From positions 806,001 to 870,000 of the forward strand of contig JAUFOR010000008.1 of the NCBI GenBank assembly GCA_040285745.1: 64,000 bases of DNA. The letters are read 5' to 3'. The DNA comes from Barthelona sp. PCE. Lineage: Eukaryota. Position numbers and translations under genes: made by a program. The notes beneath the pieces are model-generated. The model had not been told where the DNA came from and did not search any database. It worked only from the letters and a program-made list of their open reading frames with translations. This document shows, one piece after another, positions 1,258 to 33,052 of this stretch. Numbering within the stretch: position 1 is the first letter of the stretch; each line of letters begins with the position of its first letter.

Positions 1258-2493
1258 GTGAAGCATGACCGATCAGTGAAAGAAGAGAGGTTTACATTTG
1301 CAGCAAGTGTAAGAACCCCTAAATCATTGGGGAATTTTCTTGAATTTATCAACTCAAATGATTTTGTGGGTCTGATATTGGGAACTACAGCCGATGCAAC
1401 ACATGTTGAATATTTTATTAGCATATTAGTGCGTCACGCTATTCAATTTAGAAATTCTACAGATTTTGAGGAATTTCGATGGTTTTGCGAAACTTTTCAT
1501 CAAAAGTTATCAGCAAATAGGAGGTATTATTACGCTGCAGTTGCATTAGAAAGGCTAATTTATACATTGGGAGGATTTCAGAGTGATAATAGGGAACCTG
1601 ATCGCTTTCCTCTGTTTAAACTTCTGTTGGAGCACTCATCCATGATGGAACAGCTTTGGACACATATAAATTCAGCAAAGAACAATACAAGTACATCACA
1701 AAGCCAACTTTTTGGTTTTGGCTCGCAGATGGCTTTTGGAAGCTCTCAAATGGATTCAGCAACTACCGACACCGATCGTCTCATACGAGAAGCACATAGA
1801 ATCCTTACTGTTTCAAAGGAAATGTTCAAAGAGCATACATCGTTTGCTATTCCAACTTTGTGTCTTAGCTTTTATGTTGGTTTTTACTTTGGTGAGTGGG
1901 AATATGACGTGTTAGCGCCTCAGATCGAGGTTATTGAGGCCAACGCTTCTTTGTTTCCGTCTTTTTCAAATTTTCTTCCCTTTTATCTTTACTATGATGT
2001 TGAGGTATGTGCAATGTACGCAATCGGCCTTTTGGAAAGCGGTGTTGTTAACGAAACCGTTCTGGCAAGCGTTATATTCATGATACAGACCGAAAGCATC
2101 AGCGACGATCAGTTGATCGCAATCAAGAACTTGTTGGTTGATGCATTAATGATGCGCATGTGCGACGTTAGTATTACGTCGAAAATAGTGTACGCTCTAC
2201 AGCATGTTGGTCTCACACCAGGTGACGATGATGCACTCACCGAACATATACGATATATCAATTTTGGAGCGCTTAAGCGTCGTATTGAACATGTGAATGG
2301 AAAACTCAACGTGAAACAAGCGGTGTTGCCGATCGTTGCGTTGTTGCGTTGGATGAAAAACATCGGTTTTCAGATTCGAACTCCCGCTTCTGTGTATATC
2401 AAGGCTGAAAAGGTCGACTTTGACTTCTGCGCATCTATTCGATCCAACGTGTTTGCATCCCAACTTACTTCTGAAGACTATCCAGTCGAATAA
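1258..2493 (+). CDS. hypothetical, largely helical protein; true start uncertain
   Basis: 411-codon open frame. The listed start is GTG and the first in-frame ATG is about 128 codons in, so a small 5' intron or other start is likely. Contains an SQ/FG patch (SQSQLFGFGSQMAFGSSQ). Confidence 0.65.
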   Translation: MKHDRSVKEERFTFAASVRTPKSLGNFLEFINSNDFVGLILGTTADATHVEYFISILVRHAIQFRNSTDFEEFRWFCETFHQKLSANRRYYYAAVALERLIYTLGGFQSDNREPDRFPLFKLLLEHSSMMEQLWTHINSAKNNTSTSQSQLFGFGSQMAFGSSQMDSATTDTDRLIREAHRILTVSKEMFKEHTSFAIPTLCLSFYVGFYFGEWEYDVLAPQIEVIEANASLFPSFSNFLPFYLYYDVEVCAMYAIGLLESGVVNETVLASVIFMIQTESISDDQLIAIKNLLVDALMMRMCDVSITSKIVYALQHVGLTPGDDDALTEHIRYINFGALKRRIEHVNGKLNVKQAVLPIVALLRWMKNIGFQIRTPASVYIKAEKVDFDFCASIRSNVFASQLTSEDYPVE

Positions 2494-3864
2494 TTATTTG
2501 GTTGGGGGCGGGGACTGCAGCGATCCTACATCTCGGGTCCTATTCTGTACAACAACGCCCACGACATCTCTCGGGCTCCCAATGCGATCGGTGAGCTCGT
2601 CCATTTCACTCTGCTGTGTATGTTCCCCTATTGGCATGAGGAAAGCTGGCATGTCTGTTGCTTCCTCCTTCGGTTCAGCCGACTTCACTCTGAAGTATGG
2701 GGGCACAACCAGCCCCTTGACGCGCGGCAGAACCATGTAGTTGTCAGGCCAACACTCCAAGATAATCGGCTTCAAACACTCCTTGATGGTCTTCCGTATG
2801 GTCATTGAACTAACCTGGAATATGTTGCCCACGGTCTTCTGTGGTGCCTTAACCCTCTCACTACGAGCTATGATGTAAAGAGCACAAGCACCGTATGTAC
2901 CGCTGTTGATGCGACGCGAGGATGACAACCTTGCATGTAGATTCTTTGCAAAGGCAACCACGTGCGGAACAGACTCTTCAGGGAGTCCCACAGTCTTGCA
3001 AGCGGAAGGAATCAACGCGATCATGTCTTGTGTGGCCTTTGTCATAACCACCTCATCACCATACGTCGCTGTCGCCACTGCCTTATCTGCAAAGAGGGAG
3101 ACTATGCTGTCCAGCTGCATTTGGTCAATGTGGAACAGCTTCTGTATTGTGTCCGTCTGGTTGGTCTCAGTAGCCTTGATCAGCGCGCTCACAATGGAAG
3201 TTATGGTCACACTGTCGAGCATATTTCTCGGCTTCGTGCGGTTCCATAGCCCTATTGATGCAAACAGTGTCTTACAGATGAATTTAAAGTGGTTGAACTG
3301 GAAACCAAGGAAATGCTGCGCGTCTGCCACAATTGAACTTCCCAGGATAAGAACTCTAGTGCACTGCGGGGTCAGTAGGGCGTCGCCGAGCTCGAAACGA
3401 GAGGGTAGACTGAGGGATTGGCTTGCTTTTTGAGAGAACATATCAAAGTGTTGGAAGACCTTATTCGTTACAGGATCGATATTCTCAACATCAACGAGGT
3501 AAGGCAGGCTGATTGGGACCGCATCACTTACGAAATAACCCACGGACAGCTTTTCTTCATCCTCGCTAAACTGACCCATCAGTTCATTTAGTCCCTCGTT
3601 CTGCACATCTTGCATATCGGGAAGATCGCACGATGGTTGGATCTGGAACACCTTAGACGGTAACCCCAGGACGAAGTCTACCCAAAAGGGGAGTTCATTC
3701 ACTGATTCGAAGATGTTGTGGCAGCTACTGCATACAAGAAGGTACTGGTTCGGAAAAAGCGAGTTGTCAATGAACGTTTTTGTTGATTGGCAATAAGGGC
3801 AGCTATTTTCAAGAAAATTTGTTATCGAAACGTCTTCAACACTCTCCTGGTTGGCGGTAAGCAT
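2494..3864 (-). CDS. divergent TFIIB-family transcription initiation factor
   Basis: N-terminal zinc ribbon CPYC-x19-CSSC, followed by a WxxF reader remnant. The C-terminal cyclin-fold repeat (LIPSACKTVGLP...GACALYI...QKTVGNIFQVSSMTIRKTIKE) matches TFIIB repeat 2. Confidence 0.7.
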   Translation of the reverse strand: MLTANQESVEDVSITNFLENSCPYCQSTKTFIDNSLFPNQYLLVCSSCHNIFESVNELPFWVDFVLGLPSKVFQIQPSCDLPDMQDVQNEGLNELMGQFSEDEEKLSVGYFVSDAVPISLPYLVDVENIDPVTNKVFQHFDMFSQKASQSLSLPSRFELGDALLTPQCTRVLILGSSIVADAQHFLGFQFNHFKFICKTLFASIGLWNRTKPRNMLDSVTITSIVSALIKATETNQTDTIQKLFHIDQMQLDSIVSLFADKAVATATYGDEVVMTKATQDMIALIPSACKTVGLPEESVPHVVAFAKNLHARLSSSRRINSGTYGACALYIIARSERVKAPQKTVGNIFQVSSMTIRKTIKECLKPIILECWPDNYMVLPRVKGLVVPPYFRVKSAEPKEEATDMPAFLMPIGEHTQQSEMDELTDRIGSPRDVVGVVVQNRTRDVGSLQSPPPTK

Positions 3865-18694: not shown

Positions 18695-20545
18695 ATGGTC
18701 GTTCAGCTATATATCACCCTTTCACATATGTCCAGGTTAATTGGCATCAACTTCCCGTTCAAGCCGGTTGAAGAGGGCGTTGAAGCGGACGTAATTCAAT
18801 GCAAAACGTCAAGGTTCAAGTATCCAAAAAATACGATCGTGGGGTCACTCAATAGCGCTTTCGTTCTGTTGAATGAAGAGAAAGTGGTGTTTATCACACA
18901 TAACTTACACGATCTAACCATTTGCGAACTTGATTTACACACATTAGAAACTTTAACGCAGAAGAACCTTTGTTTCTCTCAAAAAATCACATCAACAGTC
19001 TGCTATCACGAGGGATACTGCATCATCGCAACTGTTTACGGGGAACTATTTGTTGTTGGAGTTAATTCGGATGAACTTTACCAAACAAAGTTTTCTAGTG
19101 GTGTTTTAGAGATTAAGAGCACCCCCTACGGATTTATAGTTGTGGATTCACAGGGATGTGTCACACAATGCTCTATTTCAGATGAAAAGATCCGCAAAAC
19201 CTCCCTGCAAACCAAAAAGTGTGGGAAAGAGATTTATTCACTGTCTGTCAACGGTATGCACTGGTCATGCTTTGGTGCAAACGGCGTACTCTTCACTGGA
19301 TCCTTTGTTGAGCATTCAAGGCCAACGCTAACAGAGTTTGATGCTCCACTAGCGGATTGCTTAGCTGTTTATGAGGACACCGTCTATTATCATTACAATC
19401 ACTTTCTTCATTCACTGTCAGGTGATGTGGAGCAGTCGTTGCTGTTCCCTAAGGAGGTCAAGTCTATGCTTTGTATCGATGATCTTCTCTTTATTCTCAC
19501 AGTCAATGATGGTCTTTACATTAGCCACGTGTACGACGGGCACATGACAGACCCCCATGCGGTTGCCAACACCGAGGAGGCACTTGCAATGCACGAGCAC
19601 GAAAAGAACATTGTCCTTTCCACACACAGCGGTTGTGTACTCTTGTTACCCACAAAGAGCAAGGCTGTCTTGAAGATGACAAGCCGCGAATATGAAATCC
19701 CAATTGCACAGTATAACTTCCTGTTACAGTCAGAAGAGCTCGATGATACGTGGGGAGTTGAGTGGACGACCAAACTAGGCATGTTGCAGATTATTAGCGA
19801 ATCGAGATTTGTTGGTAGCCAGCTCCTGTCTGTCGTTTTGGACGCGCTGAGCGACCTACCGTTGATTGATAACCCTCCAGCTTTGCTTGATGATTTTGAT
19901 TTTTGCTTGTGGGGTGTCATTACATTAATGGCACATCACAGACATAGCGTTATCTGTGATATCCTGGGTACATACAAGCGCACCCTCGAGTCTCCACCTC
20001 TCTTCTCGCTTTTCGTTGAAGCAATGGTTCGCAGCGGAACACCTGTTGACGATAGTGTGGCTGTGCATCTGCTGCTGTTTGACGAGGAACACCCACATGT
20101 TGCTTTGTTTGAGGAGTGGAACGGCACTGACTTGAAGACTCACATTGGTTCTTTCGTTCATTTAACACCGTGCTTACTCCCTATTGTATTAAATTTCGCA
20201 GTTGATGACTTGATTGTTATTTTCATGAAGATTGTTGATGCAGGACATCCAACAACAGCTTTCACTCTCCTTAACAGACTTGCGAAGTGCGAGTATGGTG
20301 TCCAAGAGGAGCTAATTGGTGTTTTACTGGATAAATACATTGAACTAGATAGGGTACATGAAGTTTCACACCTGCCTTGGATGGGCAGTCATATCAAGAC
20401 CGTAATTGAGCTGCTACATGGTAGTCAGAACACATCAGCTTCATGCGCATTCGATTTTTGTATCACTAGAAAACTATGGAGGGAAGCAAGTGAAGTTGCG
20501 CCTGGTGATGATGAGAAATCTTTGGCACTGCGTATGATGATCTAA
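18695..20545 (+). CDS. beta-propeller plus helical protein, possibly ELYS/AHCTF1-like nucleoporin
   Basis: The N-terminal half has a propeller-like strand pattern. C-terminal LLLFDEEH...IVDAGHPTTAF...HLPW...FCITRKLWREA resembles the ELYS domain by eye. The CDS itself is solid; the identity is tentative. Confidence 0.45.
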   Translation: MVVQLYITLSHMSRLIGINFPFKPVEEGVEADVIQCKTSRFKYPKNTIVGSLNSAFVLLNEEKVVFITHNLHDLTICELDLHTLETLTQKNLCFSQKITSTVCYHEGYCIIATVYGELFVVGVNSDELYQTKFSSGVLEIKSTPYGFIVVDSQGCVTQCSISDEKIRKTSLQTKKCGKEIYSLSVNGMHWSCFGANGVLFTGSFVEHSRPTLTEFDAPLADCLAVYEDTVYYHYNHFLHSLSGDVEQSLLFPKEVKSMLCIDDLLFILTVNDGLYISHVYDGHMTDPHAVANTEEALAMHEHEKNIVLSTHSGCVLLLPTKSKAVLKMTSREYEIPIAQYNFLLQSEELDDTWGVEWTTKLGMLQIISESRFVGSQLLSVVLDALSDLPLIDNPPALLDDFDFCLWGVITLMAHHRHSVICDILGTYKRTLESPPLFSLFVEAMVRSGTPVDDSVAVHLLLFDEEHPHVALFEEWNGTDLKTHIGSFVHLTPCLLPIVLNFAVDDLIVIFMKIVDAGHPTTAFTLLNRLAKCEYGVQEELIGVLLDKYIELDRVHEVSHLPWMGSHIKTVIELLHGSQNTSASCAFDFCITRKLWREASEVAPGDDEKSLALRMMI

Positions 20546-20874
20546 CGATACACAGAGCGCCTTGAGATGAGGTAATCGTCAATACACTGCAGAGATCCAT
20601 TACGGATACTATCAATAATAAACATAGAGTTGATAAAGTATGCTGATGGCATTTTCCCTCCTCTAAGGTACTCCTTAATGGATTTCTTGAGTATGACGTG
20701 GGTTACATCTCTATTCATAAACTGAGAAACAATCCCACCATGTGCTTCAATTAGTCTACGTGCTGCATATATAGTTAAGCTTGCTAGTTCATGCCCATGC
20801 TCAAATAAACCATCATTAATGAAGAAATTATGCCCTCTAAACAAGTTACTTATATGTATGGATTCATTATTCAT
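20542..20874 (-). CDS. stand-alone BRCT-domain protein (REV1-BRCT-like)
   Basis: LFRGHNFFIN...LIEAHGG...VTHVI...FIIDSIRNGSL...Y is the BRCT pattern; 110 aa. Confidence 0.75.
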   Translation of the reverse strand: MNNESIHISNLFRGHNFFINDGLFEHGHELASLTIYAARRLIEAHGGIVSQFMNRDVTHVILKKSIKEYLRGGKMPSAYFINSMFIIDSIRNGSLQCIDDYLISRRSVYR

Positions 20875-26369: not shown

Positions 26370-28358
26370 TTAACGTTGACTGCGAACTGAATTGTAGTTT
26401 TTATGAGATGAACTGATACTCTGTGATACAAGGGTGGGGATTGGAACTTTGATATGCACTCTGGTACCTAAATCCGGACCAGATTCTATATTGAAAATTC
26501 CTGAAAACATTTTGGTTACCGTCACAGCCTTTGATAGACCAAAACCAGAACCGAAGCTACGTACTTTGTTGACTGATTCTGTTTTAACACCGTAACTAGC
26601 GAGATCCTTAAGTACATCCTGATCAGGGAATCCAACTCCCTTGTCCTCTACAATAATGTGGAGGTTATGGACACTCAACGCAACACGGACAAAAATCGTG
26701 GAGCTTGGAGGAGAATACTTACGGCTGTTAGCAACGAGATCACGAACAACATCAGAAAAAACGGGGGGCATCAGAATTTCGCTAACATGATGCCTATAAC
26801 CAAATACAATTTGTAGAAGGTGCTTTCTACCTTCATAAGAATCGTACTTCAACTTGTCCAAGAAAAGACCGAGACCAGATCCTGTTAACATTGAATTGCG
26901 TGTGACTGCTTCTGTCCAATCAGCGAAAGAGTTATGGAATTCGCTGTAGGGAATTTTCAACCACTGCTCAGGTGCACGGACACGCACTATGAGCTCAGAA
27001 GCACGGTCATTCAACGATTTAAGGATGTTATCGTTCAACAAACCAACAAGTTCAGAAATTTTTTCATTCTCAGTGTTGGAGGCACTAACATTATTGATCA
27101 ATTCAAGGGACTCAGCCTTGACGATCTCAACAAGAGATTCTGTTGATTTCAGTTGATTAAGTACCTCATCACTGCTAATATTAAGTGCTTCCTGGTAAGC
27201 AGCAACCTGTGAGCAAGATCTAGGGAAAATATCGGCCTTGATCTCCTCAGCGGTCTTTGACGTTAACTCAGCAAAGGCACCACATATTGTATCAATCAAT
27301 CTACCAACAATGTTAATAACGTTAACGATTGAGTGGAAATCAATCTTTATACGCTGCTCATTGGTAAAATCTGGCATCTCCAGCTCAAGAGACTTGCGCA
27401 GGAGCAGCACAAGGTTGGAACTTACCTTCAAAATACTGTCCATCTCATCTTCTTCGACGGTGACGGGAGCACGGTGCATGAGCGGGTCTTCCCCTGAATT
27501 GGTTAACCACGGGTGCTGGATGAGGTCATCCACGTTGAACCTGTCTTCGGGGGAGCGGCGAAGCATTCCGATTAGAAGAGAGCAAGCGGGATGTTTGACG
27601 AAATGTTTGGGAATGTCGATAGGCTTACTAAGAATCTCATTAAACAGTGTTCCGACGTCCTTGGCCTGGAACGGGGGCTTTCCGTGGAGTAATTGATAGA
27701 AAACAACACCAAGGGCCCATACATCCAGAGCAGCACCCTTCAGCACTGGAAGATTAGGAGCGTTCGATCCGTATCTTCTTCTTTGCAGGTAGTATCTCAC
27801 AGCCTCTGGGGCGATCGTGAGCGGTGTTCCGGCAACAGATTTGATATTGTCAATGTCAGAATCAACAGAAAGACCAAAATCGATCAAGTATAGCTGCCCC
27901 GTCTCTGTCAGAAGAATATTATCAGCCTTGATGTCTCTATGCGCGACCCCAGAGCTGTGGATGAAATGCAGAGTCGAAACTAGATCACGCATGAAAAGTC
28001 GAACGGCTTCAATAGAATGGGGTTGGGTACTAGCATTCTGAACGAATAAAGGACGTCCGTTCTCAATGTGCTCAAAGACAAGCACAATTGATGGGTCATC
28101 TGTATGTGATAAATCGAGTGCTTCATAAAACTTGGGAATATGCGGATGATTGTCGGAAAGCTTGCTCATAATAGCAATCTCTCTTTTTGCCGTAGGCGGA
28201 ATCACTCCATTTTTCTTTAGAGTGATCTTTTTCAAGGCATATTCTTTTGATGTGTCTTCTGGATCATAGCAACGGTAAACTGTTGCTTGTGACCCTGATC
28301 CAATCACTTCTTGGACCACATATTGAGCAAAAGTTTGACTTTGGTTGACGCGGGACAT
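26370..28358 (-). CDS. CAMKK-like Ser/Thr kinase fused to a histidine-kinase-like (HATPase_c) module
   Basis: Kinase: GSGSQATV, ALKK, HRDIKADN, DFG, APE, DVWALG. GHKL boxes: DLVANSRKY (N), VEDKGVGF (G1), GSGFGLS (G2), ESGPDLGT (G3). Confidence 0.88.
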   Translation of the reverse strand: MSRVNQSQTFAQYVVQEVIGSGSQATVYRCYDPEDTSKEYALKKITLKKNGVIPPTAKREIAIMSKLSDNHPHIPKFYEALDLSHTDDPSIVLVFEHIENGRPLFVQNASTQPHSIEAVRLFMRDLVSTLHFIHSSGVAHRDIKADNILLTETGQLYLIDFGLSVDSDIDNIKSVAGTPLTIAPEAVRYYLQRRRYGSNAPNLPVLKGAALDVWALGVVFYQLLHGKPPFQAKDVGTLFNEILSKPIDIPKHFVKHPACSLLIGMLRRSPEDRFNVDDLIQHPWLTNSGEDPLMHRAPVTVEEDEMDSILKVSSNLVLLLRKSLELEMPDFTNEQRIKIDFHSIVNVINIVGRLIDTICGAFAELTSKTAEEIKADIFPRSCSQVAAYQEALNISSDEVLNQLKSTESLVEIVKAESLELINNVSASNTENEKISELVGLLNDNILKSLNDRASELIVRVRAPEQWLKIPYSEFHNSFADWTEAVTRNSMLTGSGLGLFLDKLKYDSYEGRKHLLQIVFGYRHHVSEILMPPVFSDVVRDLVANSRKYSPPSSTIFVRVALSVHNLHIIVEDKGVGFPDQDVLKDLASYGVKTESVNKVRSFGSGFGLSKAVTVTKMFSGIFNIESGPDLGTRVHIKVPIPTLVSQSISSSHKNYNSVRSQR

Positions 28359-30783: not shown

Positions 30784-31614
30784 ATGGAGGTTTATAACAC
30801 CATTTTTTTATTTATTTTTTACTTTGCAGACATCTGTTTAGCAATTTTTGCAATTCACAGCACTTTTAAATATGCGCGAACTCGTCAAGCCACTAAAATG
30901 AAATTTCGTGGCTTTAAACTGTCCTTGGGTTTTTTTTTAGCGCTTTGTGAAGTGATATTGTTCATTTTTCTATTTGGATTTGTGGATGAGTTTAGTGATG
31001 ATTTTAAAGATTTTTATCGTGGTGTTGACTCTTTTAGGGTCTTTTATGCGATTTTATTCAACTGTATTGTAATGTTTCCTTTATTTATTGTTTTTAACAC
31101 ACTTGTAACTTCCAAATTTTTGCGTTCAATTTTTTTTATGATATCTTTACTGTTGCCTCCATTAATCATGTGGAGATTACCGTTCCTATTACCCAACAGT
31201 GATCTTCTCACTAAACCTCGATTTTTTTTCGATCATCAGAATGTTACTAATGGTGATTACTTAGTATTGTCCATTTCTTCTCTTATACAGCTCATTGAGA
31301 TCATATTGGTGCTGCAATTGGTACTAGGTAAGGTTGAAAACAACACGATTAGAAGGAATTCCTTTAAACTTTTTATTATTTCGATTTCCTTAATGTTTTT
31401 TGCTTTTTTTACTTCTTTTTTATTAATTTTTATCAATTCATTCATCATAAACATGTTAACTATCGTCTTTTTACTAGCTAATGGTTCGGTTCATTTGTAC
31501 TATTACACCGAGAGACAAAGCGGAATCATCAAACAAAGCGCTTTGCAGTACAGAAGAGATCTTCTCAATACGGAAAACAAAGACATGGGCATGGGTTATG
31601 TCGTGACACTGTAG
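30784..31614 (+). CDS. seven-transmembrane protein, orphan GPCR-like topology
   Basis: Seven hydrophobic segments counted by eye, almost no N-terminal domain, basic loops after TM1 and TM5, and a short hydrophilic tail. Confidence 0.65.
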   Translation: MEVYNTIFLFIFYFADICLAIFAIHSTFKYARTRQATKMKFRGFKLSLGFFLALCEVILFIFLFGFVDEFSDDFKDFYRGVDSFRVFYAILFNCIVMFPLFIVFNTLVTSKFLRSIFFMISLLLPPLIMWRLPFLLPNSDLLTKPRFFFDHQNVTNGDYLVLSISSLIQLIEIILVLQLVLGKVENNTIRRNSFKLFIISISLMFFAFFTSFLLIFINSFIINMLTIVFLLANGSVHLYYYTERQSGIIKQSALQYRRDLLNTENKDMGMGYVVTL

Positions 31615-32846
31615 CACAAATTTACGAGTTGCTCTACCTCCCGTATAAATGATTTTCCCCAATCATCATCGTCGATTGTCACGTTGATAAGCATCGAATG
31701 TAAACAGTTGAGTGTTTCTTTCCTGATGGCTTTCGTGGATGATGTGATGTTGTTTTTGAGGAATGATAGTACGCACTCTTGCTCGCAGAAAAAGGAGAAC
31801 CCTGTAAGAGATATGAGGTTGGTAAGAACCCAAAGATAACAGCCAACGAGTGCTGGATCACTCGATGTAGCTGCAGAGTCCAGTCTTGAGAAGAAAAAAC
31901 GTAAAGAACAAGAACCTAAAACATAATTAGAATTATCAGAATAGCATAAATTGCCCAAAAACAAAACAAAATACTTTTCAATTCGTGATCCTATACCCAT
32001 ACTGTCTTCCATATCTAACTGCTCTAATCTTTCGATAACAAGATCAGTGATAATCTTGTTCTCGTCTTTGATAACAAAAAAATCGCAATAAGGATTCTCT
32101 TGGAACAAGCCAATCGAGTACAAGATGTGTGCCAAGACCTCAACAGAAAGAGATGTGCGTGTGATGAGTTCATAAAACATGAGTCGTACAAAAGACGGTA
32201 TGGGGTGATGGCTTGAGTACCGTACTATGTTGCACAGTACCCACAGATACTTCAAAGCCAGCAGCGAATCATTGCCAGTGATTTTGTAGTGTTGTAGATC
32301 AAGTAAATATATTTTATGGATAGCCCCCCACACGCCCATACTCTCACACAGAATAGCAAGCGGCTGGCAGTCACCAATGATGTTTCCCAACAACCATGTC
32401 GCTTGCTTGACCGTCTCAACGTCGACAACGAACAAAAAATCGAAAGTTTCGGTGAGAATGTAGCGGATAGTGACCTGAATAATTGGTGTAAAGAAACATA
32501 GATCAGCGCACATAGACGTGCAAAAAGCAATGTTTGTTAAGCAGTATAAGGCGTAAAACACTAGCTTACGAGAATATTTTCCAGATATCAGAGAGACTAA
32601 CAGCTTAAACAATTCAACTAAGTCATGATTTAAAGCAAGGTCAGGTTGTTCTTCGAATTTAGAGTCCGTGAAGACAAATTTAAGAGCGTTGAGGTAATCT
32701 ATAACCACAGATAGCTCATTATTTGCCAAAGCAGCCCTAATCTCTGAAACAACAGCATCCCAGTTATTATGCGCTATTAGAGACTTAATTGAGCCCAGAT
32801 CCAACTCTTTAAGAGATGTTAAATTTAATGGAGTAACTGAGACCAT
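31596..32846 (-). CDS. divergent importin-alpha-like ARM-repeat protein
   Basis: Repeated WxxxN-type ARM motifs: YCLTNIA, QATWLLGNIIGD, WVLCNI, FLGNL, WVLTNL. ATG at 32846 is preferred over 32972. Confidence 0.7.
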   Translation of the reverse strand: MVSVTPLNLTSLKELDLGSIKSLIAHNNWDAVVSEIRAALANNELSVVIDYLNALKFVFTDSKFEEQPDLALNHDLVELFKLLVSLISGKYSRKLVFYALYCLTNIAFCTSMCADLCFFTPIIQVTIRYILTETFDFLFVVDVETVKQATWLLGNIIGDCQPLAILCESMGVWGAIHKIYLLDLQHYKITGNDSLLALKYLWVLCNIVRYSSHHPIPSFVRLMFYELITRTSLSVEVLAHILYSIGLFQENPYCDFFVIKDENKIITDLVIERLEQLDMEDSMGIGSRIEKYFVLFLGNLCYSDNSNYVLGSCSLRFFFSRLDSAATSSDPALVGCYLWVLTNLISLTGFSFFCEQECVLSFLKNNITSSTKAIRKETLNCLHSMLINVTIDDDDWGKSFIREVEQLVNLCYSVTT

Positions 32847-33052
32847 GAAAGTAGATAGAAATGGAAAGGTGTATAATATGTGCAAAATAAAGTATGTTAT
32901 GGGTGTTAAAATGATAAAAACTGGCCCGTTTATAGAAAATCCTAATGAAAAGGGATAGAAAACAAATTTCATGAGCTGTTGTTGAAGAGTTTGCAGGGCT
33001 CAGTTTTTCTTCAAGAAATCGTGAATTTGTGCAACTACCGATGCGCACAGTT

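Follow-up and report, generated by a model that had tools for sequence, protein, structure and literature searches.

A gene of the eukaryote Barthelona sp. PCE appears, from its sequence, to join two kinds of protein phosphorylation in one chain, raising the question of where the two halves of its product came from and what the second half does. The gene lies at 26370-28358(-) of the window, by which is meant the whole stretch of 64,000 nucleotides that was analysed (positions 806,001 to 870,000 of contig JAUFOR010000008.1), and consists of a single ATG-to-stop frame of 662 aa, here P0001, for which no intron is required. The original prediction of a Ser/Thr kinase fused to a histidine kinase (HK)-like half is borne out by this single intact frame and by Pfam matches to Pkinase (residues 13-285, E 5e-47) and HATPase_c (residues 536-641, E 1.3e-13); beyond these two, only kinase-clan models match in the Pfam scan of P0001. 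This anatomy, and the kinship of the C-terminal half with a bacterial family, can be stated with high confidence.

Gene structure and genomic setting

The contig is gene-dense, apparently intron-free and eukaryotic, the genome amounting to 10.2 Mb in 8 contigs, and the neighbours of P0001 include a DEAD-box helicase, ARPC2, FAP206 and a TFIIB-repeat protein. GC3 in the kinase, bundle and ATP domain of P0001 is 0.45, 0.43 and 0.37, and codon adaptation is 0.78, 0.84 and 0.81, all inside the range of 12 other window genes. Elsewhere in the window, convergent gene pairs at 1642-3864, 18695-20874 and 30784-32972 have 3' ends that touch (gap 0) or overlap (by 4 and 19 bases), which points to a very compact genome, and a single 9561-aa frame occupies 35252-63937(-), with no above-cut-off Pfam match and a weak one to Ephrin_rec_like (E 3e-4).

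Membrane, PAS/GAF and receiver domains had been thought lacking, and they are indeed not seen: with the C-half scanned alone against Pfam at E<=1, HisKA, PAS, GAF, REC and BCDHK_Adom3 are all absent, and no membrane helix is indicated because the top 19-residue hydropathy of P0001, located on the His helix itself, is 1.55. The description of the protein as sensor-less holds in that no known sensor domain is present, but the N-terminal slot is not empty, being filled by the kinase where some bacterial relatives carry a receiver or HPt domain.

Features of the P0001 gene, in window coordinates
Feature	Position	Strand	Basis or remark
Whole gene P0001	26370..28358	-	single 662-aa frame; gaps of 40 and 49 bases either side
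CAMKK-like Ser/Thr kinase domain, residues 13-285	27504..28322	-	Pfam, PDB matches, intact catalytic residues
Linker, residues ~286-323	27390..27503	-	resembles the tail after the kinase domain in L099, by-eye alignment
Predicted single-chain four-helix bundle, residues 333-461	26976..27362	-	AlphaFold2; no Pfam family
H-box-like His342-Ser-x-x-Asn346	27321..27335	-	candidate phospho-His codon 27333-27335; family alignment
Arg452-x-x-Glu455-x-x-x-Arg459, fourth helix	26982..27005	-	conserved in family and fusions
GHKL (HATPase_c) ATP-binding domain, residues ~462-641	26436..26975	-	Pfam, AlphaFold2, fold matches
N box, residues 536-548	26715..26753	-	Asp540 (26739-26741) four residues before catalytic Asn544 (26727-26729)
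G1 box Asp572-x-Gly574-x-Gly576	26631..26645	-	each residue 126/126
G2 box Gly603-x-Gly605-x-Gly607	26538..26552	-	124/126, 125/126, 126/126

Related fusions and the kinase half

A paralogous fusion, P0003, is encoded on another contig (L005:3685-5667, G000:C3); it is 660 aa long, collinear with P0001 and 39% identical to it over both halves. Its kinase is intact and its H motif is kept. In its ATP site Ser replaces the N-box Asn (Asn544), the lid Arg is missing and the G2 box is altered, so that P0003 is probably ATP-impaired and likely a pseudo-HK partner or control. Its retention shows that the module can persist when the ATP chemistry is no longer intact. Three further proteins, P0004, P0128 and P0143, have the same two domains, are 39, 28 and 29% identical to P0001, and by their kinase type would come from eukaryotes; P0128 and P0143 are not encoded in the Barthelona genome, where a search with the C-half gave two loci (P0001 and P0003). 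The architecture, far from being common, is rare, with 5 fusions among the best 150 matches of the C-half. In a metagenome scan none of 78 loci is such a fusion as far as the matched ranges show, and the metagenome locus L179, which spans both halves, was rejected as a fusion, since it represents separate bacterial genes. Word-index protein searches proved insensitive, returning P0001 with one ordinary HK, or P0001 alone despite four other fusions being queried; one such search covered 759-2165 aa and returned 12 ordinary HKs, and these results are uninformative on range.

The N-terminal half had been proposed to hold an intact CAMKK-like domain, and the full catalytic set is present in P0001 (Lys43, Glu60, HRD, Lys144, Asn147, DFG and APE), with CAMKK2 and CAMKK1 as the closest solved relatives among PDB matches. 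The closest unfused relative of the fused kinases is a stand-alone CAMKK-like kinase with a long acidic tail (L099:565-2616, G000:C5), itself matched best to CAMKK2. The linker that follows has no PDB match, and the bacterial-type module starts at about residue 316-325, Glu325 already being a family position (103/126).

The histidine kinase-like module

AlphaFold2 models the C-half (pLDDT 88, pTM 0.88) as four long helical stretches over residues 333-461 followed by a GHKL fold, and the helical part modelled alone reaches pLDDT 92. The top fold match of the whole module is HK853 (Z 16.4, rmsd 5.0, 220 residues aligned, model 34-348 against chain 245-480), and in this match the His helix would occupy the site of DHp helix 1, bringing His342 to within about one helical turn of HK853 His260, a placement read from the alignment end points of a predicted model. 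In other HKs the DHp aligns to module helices 3-4 instead, as expected from a pseudo-dimeric bundle; profile comparison gives no sequence evidence of an internal hairpin duplication in the bundle (probability 4%). Compared by itself, the bundle resembles single-chain four-helix bundles (1yo7, Z 11.8, rmsd 2.9, 117 aligned) as well as BCKDK (Z 9.2, rmsd 3.6, 123 aligned) and PDK2 (Z 8.4, rmsd 4.1, 127 aligned), scores which, being under 13, are frequent among helical bundles and may reflect a common arrangement. Foldseek on the bundle returns nothing at E<=0.001, and an Atlas search with the bundle alone gives no usable feature match. As modelled, the His-bearing helical domain is new and has no Pfam family.

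A candidate phospho-His had been singled out, and that residue, His342 (codon 27335-27333), is invariant in 126 of 126 aligned stand-alone relatives and in five of five fusions. Asp540, Asn544, Arg546, Lys547, Asp572, Gly574, Gly576 and Gly607 are likewise invariant across the 126 stand-alone proteins, in which the H motif (Ser343 in 117/126, Asn346 in 123/126) and the fourth helix (Arg452 in 121/126, Glu455 in 120/126, Arg459 in 107/126) are also conserved. All five fusions, at 28-39% identity to P0001, keep His342, Ser343, Asn346, the helix-4 Arg/Glu/Arg set and Asp540, the last standing where ordinary HKs show Asn. The family His falls in register with the HisKA His in a weak profile-profile match (probability 26%, pairwise E 7e-4). 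The nucleotide-binding boxes had been called complete, which is accurate for N, G1 and G2 and for Gly631-Thr632, also present in P0001, but not for the ATP lid, which has drifted: P0001 has Lys592 and Ser595 against a bacterial Arg (126/126) and Asn (125/126). Arg600 is common to all five fusions and distinct from the bacterial lid Arg.

A bacterial family of stand-alone relatives

The module had been said to recall a bacterial stand-alone family, and such a family exists and matches the entire C-half, His included. Residues 297-662, searched exhaustively, match 261 clusters at E<=1e-10 (best stand-alone match E 1e-26); of the best 150, 128 are 280-340 aa long, 148 have the same type of N box, and a kinase is present in 5. 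The best stand-alone matches, of about 305 aa, span about residues 330 to 643 of P0001. A scan of 185,579 prokaryote genomes with the N-box pattern found at least 316 relatives, of which the best 80 belong mostly to Verrucomicrobiota (46), with Balneolota, Spirochaetota, Thermodesulfobacteriota, Cyanobacteriota and others making up the rest; the His motif is present in 80/80 of these genome loci, chosen on the N box alone. P0001 has the features of the family in its full-length similarity, H motif, helix-4 Arg/Glu/Arg and N-box Asp, and departs from it at the ATP-lid Arg and Asn.

Pfam models of the HK phospho-acceptor (HisKA-type) are matched by 0 of 128 aligned family members. No family member has been solved, and the 26 PDB sequences matched by the family profile are all HKs, namely class I HK domains, with no PDK or BCKDK among them. 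Atlas clusters of the family carry generic names only, and the literature searched, in which few subscription papers were covered, yielded no description of the fusion or of the bacterial family; the available portions of PMC12354254, PMC8092228 and PMC6944256 contain nothing on the motifs. The bacterial HSxxN/RDLxxNxRK family is apparently undescribed.

In some family members REC, REC-HPt or an entire PAS hybrid kinase precedes the module, and receiver domains stand at the N terminus of 8 of 11 scanned long bacterial-type matches (HPt in 3); in nine long frames of the family from the genomes Pfam finds no further domain. Most bacterial members are orphan genes, a receiver- or HK-bearing gene being adjacent in 7 of the 53 loci (out of 80) in which the ORF filter did not lose the gene, as it did in the other 27, and any receiver lies within the locus in 20/80. 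Receivers occur at 8.7 per 100 kb within 2 kb of the family gene (24 in 277 kb) and at 3.6 per 100 kb beyond (12 in 332 kb), a 2.4-fold higher density near the gene, counted over loci that are not independent, coming as they do from related genomes, and with a receiver profile partly built from 6 of the scored loci. These sequence contexts lend the bacterial family a two-component character, though no partner is constant. No plasmid match was found. At four Balneolota loci (L019, L022, L026 and L070) an HD-domain gene begins on the family gene's stop codon or overlaps it, and at two Desulfonatronospira loci (L053 and L065) a ferritin gene adjoins it.

Origin of the two halves

Searches and trees run separately for the two halves lead the kinase to L099 and CAMKK and the module to the bacterial family. 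In kinase-half trees, which included no named reference kinases, the fused kinases cluster with L099 (SH-aLRT 97 in one tree, 88/77 in the careful tree); in the free kinase tree two of the fusions stand nearer L099 than the other three, and a single origin of the fused kinases is not rejected (p=0.105, on a reduced set of 22 rows). In a 304-column tree of the module the five fusions fall on one side of a branch (SH-aLRT 94, with long branches), no donor being resolved among 80 bacteria. A tree of the ATP domain, which left out two degenerate long-branch HK domains, sets the fusions and the family apart from 26 ordinary HK domains together with the genome's two hybrid HKs (SH-aLRT 99). A bacteria-only clade is not rejected (p=0.33, on a reduced set of 34 rows), and it is the breadth of the family, many bacterial phyla against five proteins, rather than nesting of the fusions, that leads us to infer lateral acquisition of the module from bacteria, for which the available part of PMC8136499 offers a precedent in bacterial HKs acquired by an anaerobic protist.

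Two other origins have to be weighed. That the C-half is a trimmed eukaryotic hybrid HK, its sensor and receiver lost, draws what plausibility it has from the presence of two hybrid HKs in the genome, but is highly improbable: grouping the fusions with these two hybrids is rejected in the same 34-row test (AU p=2.3e-5), whose eukaryotic hybrid HKs were these two, and the H box, N box and helical domain all differ. A grouping with PDK/BCKDK, also raised at the outset, is not seen either, the family profile matching class I HKs. Scarcely credible is the explanation of the fusion as an assembly chimera or bacterial contamination, against which the collinear paralogue on another contig, the three further fusions from outside the genome (absence from it checked for P0128 and P0143), the uniform, host-like codon use of both halves and the eukaryotic neighbours at both the P0001 and the paralogue loci argue strongly. 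On this comparison of sequences the fusion is taken to be real and old.

Possible functions of the module

The genome was searched for the receiver and HPt proteins with which an HK would be expected to communicate. These searches, whose counts are lower bounds, found at least two receiver matches, both in PAS-rich hybrid HKs (1553 and 1494 aa), at least one HisKA match, and no HPt, in a search whose control was positive in 9 of 14 genomes; with no HPt found and both receiver matches in hybrids, a relay partner is not evident. The two hybrids (L006:4808-9469, G000:C5, and L007:1568-6052, G000:C2) are soluble-looking; the ATP domain of the first clusters with bacterial PAS hybrid kinases (100/99), suggesting a separate transfer, and the second lacks a HisKA match, its H box being non-canonical.

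The leading account, which we hold tentatively, is that the module is a laterally acquired, probably monomeric His autokinase that regulates, or is regulated by, the attached CAMKK. An ancestor of Barthelona would have taken up a bacterial stand-alone HK-like gene, which would then have been joined in full to the end of a duplicated CAMKK-type kinase, in place of the tail of that kinase. The predicted single-chain bundle would take the place of the two-chain DHp bundle of ordinary HKs, so that the module could work as a monomer, and the GHKL domain would phosphorylate His342, the acid found at H+1 in ordinary HKs being supplied by Asp540 of the N box. The CAMKK would occupy the input slot, and it and the module would control each other in cis: the kinase might phosphorylate the linker or bundle, or its activity might be gated by the His or nucleotide state. 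Candidate outlets are the receivers of the two PAS-rich hybrid HKs.

The chemistry proposed here leans on an analogy with HisKA kinases, in which, according to the available part of PMC8292422, the H+1 acid is the general base and pairs with the N-box Asn, Thr or Asn at H+4 governs phosphatase activity, and a non-acidic H+1 abolishes autokinase activity. The P0001 module has Ser at H+1, Asp at the N-box partner position and Asn at H+4. The catalytic acid appears to have moved from H+1 to the N box (Asp540), and Ser and Asp would then form a swapped acid pair that keeps autokinase activity; the same Ser/Asp/Asn pattern also fits a phosphatase.

That no HPt or free response regulator was found, and that the paralogue has lost its N-box Asn, makes a nucleotide-sensing or phosphatase role possible. 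The module might regulate the CAMKK by nucleotide binding or scaffolding, for instance as the ATP/ADP sensor of an AMPK-activating kinase, and take part in no His-to-Asp relay in the eukaryote; this would also suit the degenerate N box and G2 of the retained paralogue, the drift of the ATP lid in five of five fusions, and the earlier departure of receiver-less eukaryotic HKs from phosphorelays (described in the available part of PMC6324907). We consider this unlikely, though deserving of serious weight, since the H motif, the helix-4 residues and Asp540 have stayed invariant in every fusion. Improbable, in turn, is a module acting mainly as a phosphatase or phosphate sink for receiver domains: the H+4 Asn, a phosphatase determinant in HisKA, is kept in 123/126 relatives with the H+1 acid absent, bacterial members are fused behind receiver and HPt domains, and the N-box-dead paralogue retains its H box, but the entire ATP site is invariant in 126 bacterial members, Asp540 is a possible replacement acid, and receivers in the genome are few. 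The predicted layout of a one-chain four-helix bundle before a GHKL domain is also that of PDK/BCKDK, and the bundle scores given above recall both, so that a PDK/BCKDK- or SpoIIAB-like GHKL enzyme phosphorylating Ser/Thr on another protein, with the His structural, comes into question; it is quite improbable, given that unrelated bundles reach such scores too, the identity here being 4-6%, that the whole module fits HK853 better than BCKDK, that 26 of 26 PDB sequences found by the family profile are HKs, and that BCDHK_Adom3 occurs in 0/128 members.

If the autokinase account is carried further, the family could be an unrecognised class of monomeric HK, intermediate between two-component kinases and PDK/BCKDK and here wired to an AMPK-activating-type kinase, so that the phospho-His or ATP/ADP state would set Ser/Thr signalling without HPt or response regulator; we regard this wider proposal as speculative and, on balance, unlikely. 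A soluble protein of 662 aa, its naturally degenerate paralogue and bacterial forms of 305 aa make a compact test set in which to ask if a bundle formed by a single chain suffices for an HK, if the N box can take over the base from H+1, and by what means one polypeptide couples His to Ser/Thr phosphorylation.

Comparison with known systems

With class I (HisKA) HKs such as WalK and HK853 the P0001 module shares a GHKL domain with N, G1 and G2 boxes, the H+4 Asn, and a His on a long helix at about the DHp helix 1 position. Those kinases have HisKA, an acidic H+1, an N-box Asn, a two-helix dimerisation hairpin and a sensor, whereas the module has no HisKA match, Ser at H+1, Asp as its partner, four helices in one chain in the model, and no sensor. 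HWE kinases, like the P0001 module, have a non-acidic H+1 with an acid in the N box, and HWE_HK and HisKA_2 profiles are matched by 0 of 128 family members. A monomeric HK has a precedent in EL346 (HWE/HisKA_2), which, in the available part of 10.1101/2020.07.08.194225, is monomeric through a LOV domain blocking the DHp face, not through a four-helix bundle.

PDK/BCKDK resemble the module as modelled in having a one-chain four-helix bundle followed by a GHKL domain, but there is no sequence match, and P0001 differs in an ATP domain nearer to class I HKs, an invariant helix-1 His and a second, fused kinase. From CAMKK1/2, the closest solved relatives of its N-half, P0001 differs in carrying the HK-like module in place of the tail.

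Most eukaryotic HKs are hybrids, and receiver-less ones exist and have drifted to Ser/Thr activity, as far as the available part of PMC6324907 goes. The hybrids have a C-terminal receiver, whereas P0001 has no REC. Plant phytochromes, ERS2-type receptors and chloroplast sensor kinase likewise have no receiver domain, but these derivatives carry sensor domains and a degenerate HisKA, whereas P0001 has an invariant His and a separate Hanks-type kinase. The survey of eukaryotic HKs in the same part of PMC6324907 kept proteins with two of HisKA, HATPase_c and REC; P0001 and the bacterial family have HATPase_c only and would be dropped by that rule, so an HK-like class may be missing from the census.

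Cyanobacterial HstK reportedly has a Ser/Thr-kinase-type domain N-terminal to an HK, an arrangement also shared by fungal group X HKs. The latter are large proteins with S/TK-related and GAF domains (PMC6324907, in the part available) and a canonical HisKA, whereas P0001, at 662 aa, combines an intact CAMKK-type kinase with an unrelated HK module and has neither GAF nor receiver. Ser/Thr kinase-HK fusions and transferred HKs are already known, and fusion to the HSxxN/RDLxxNxRK family is a new variant among them.
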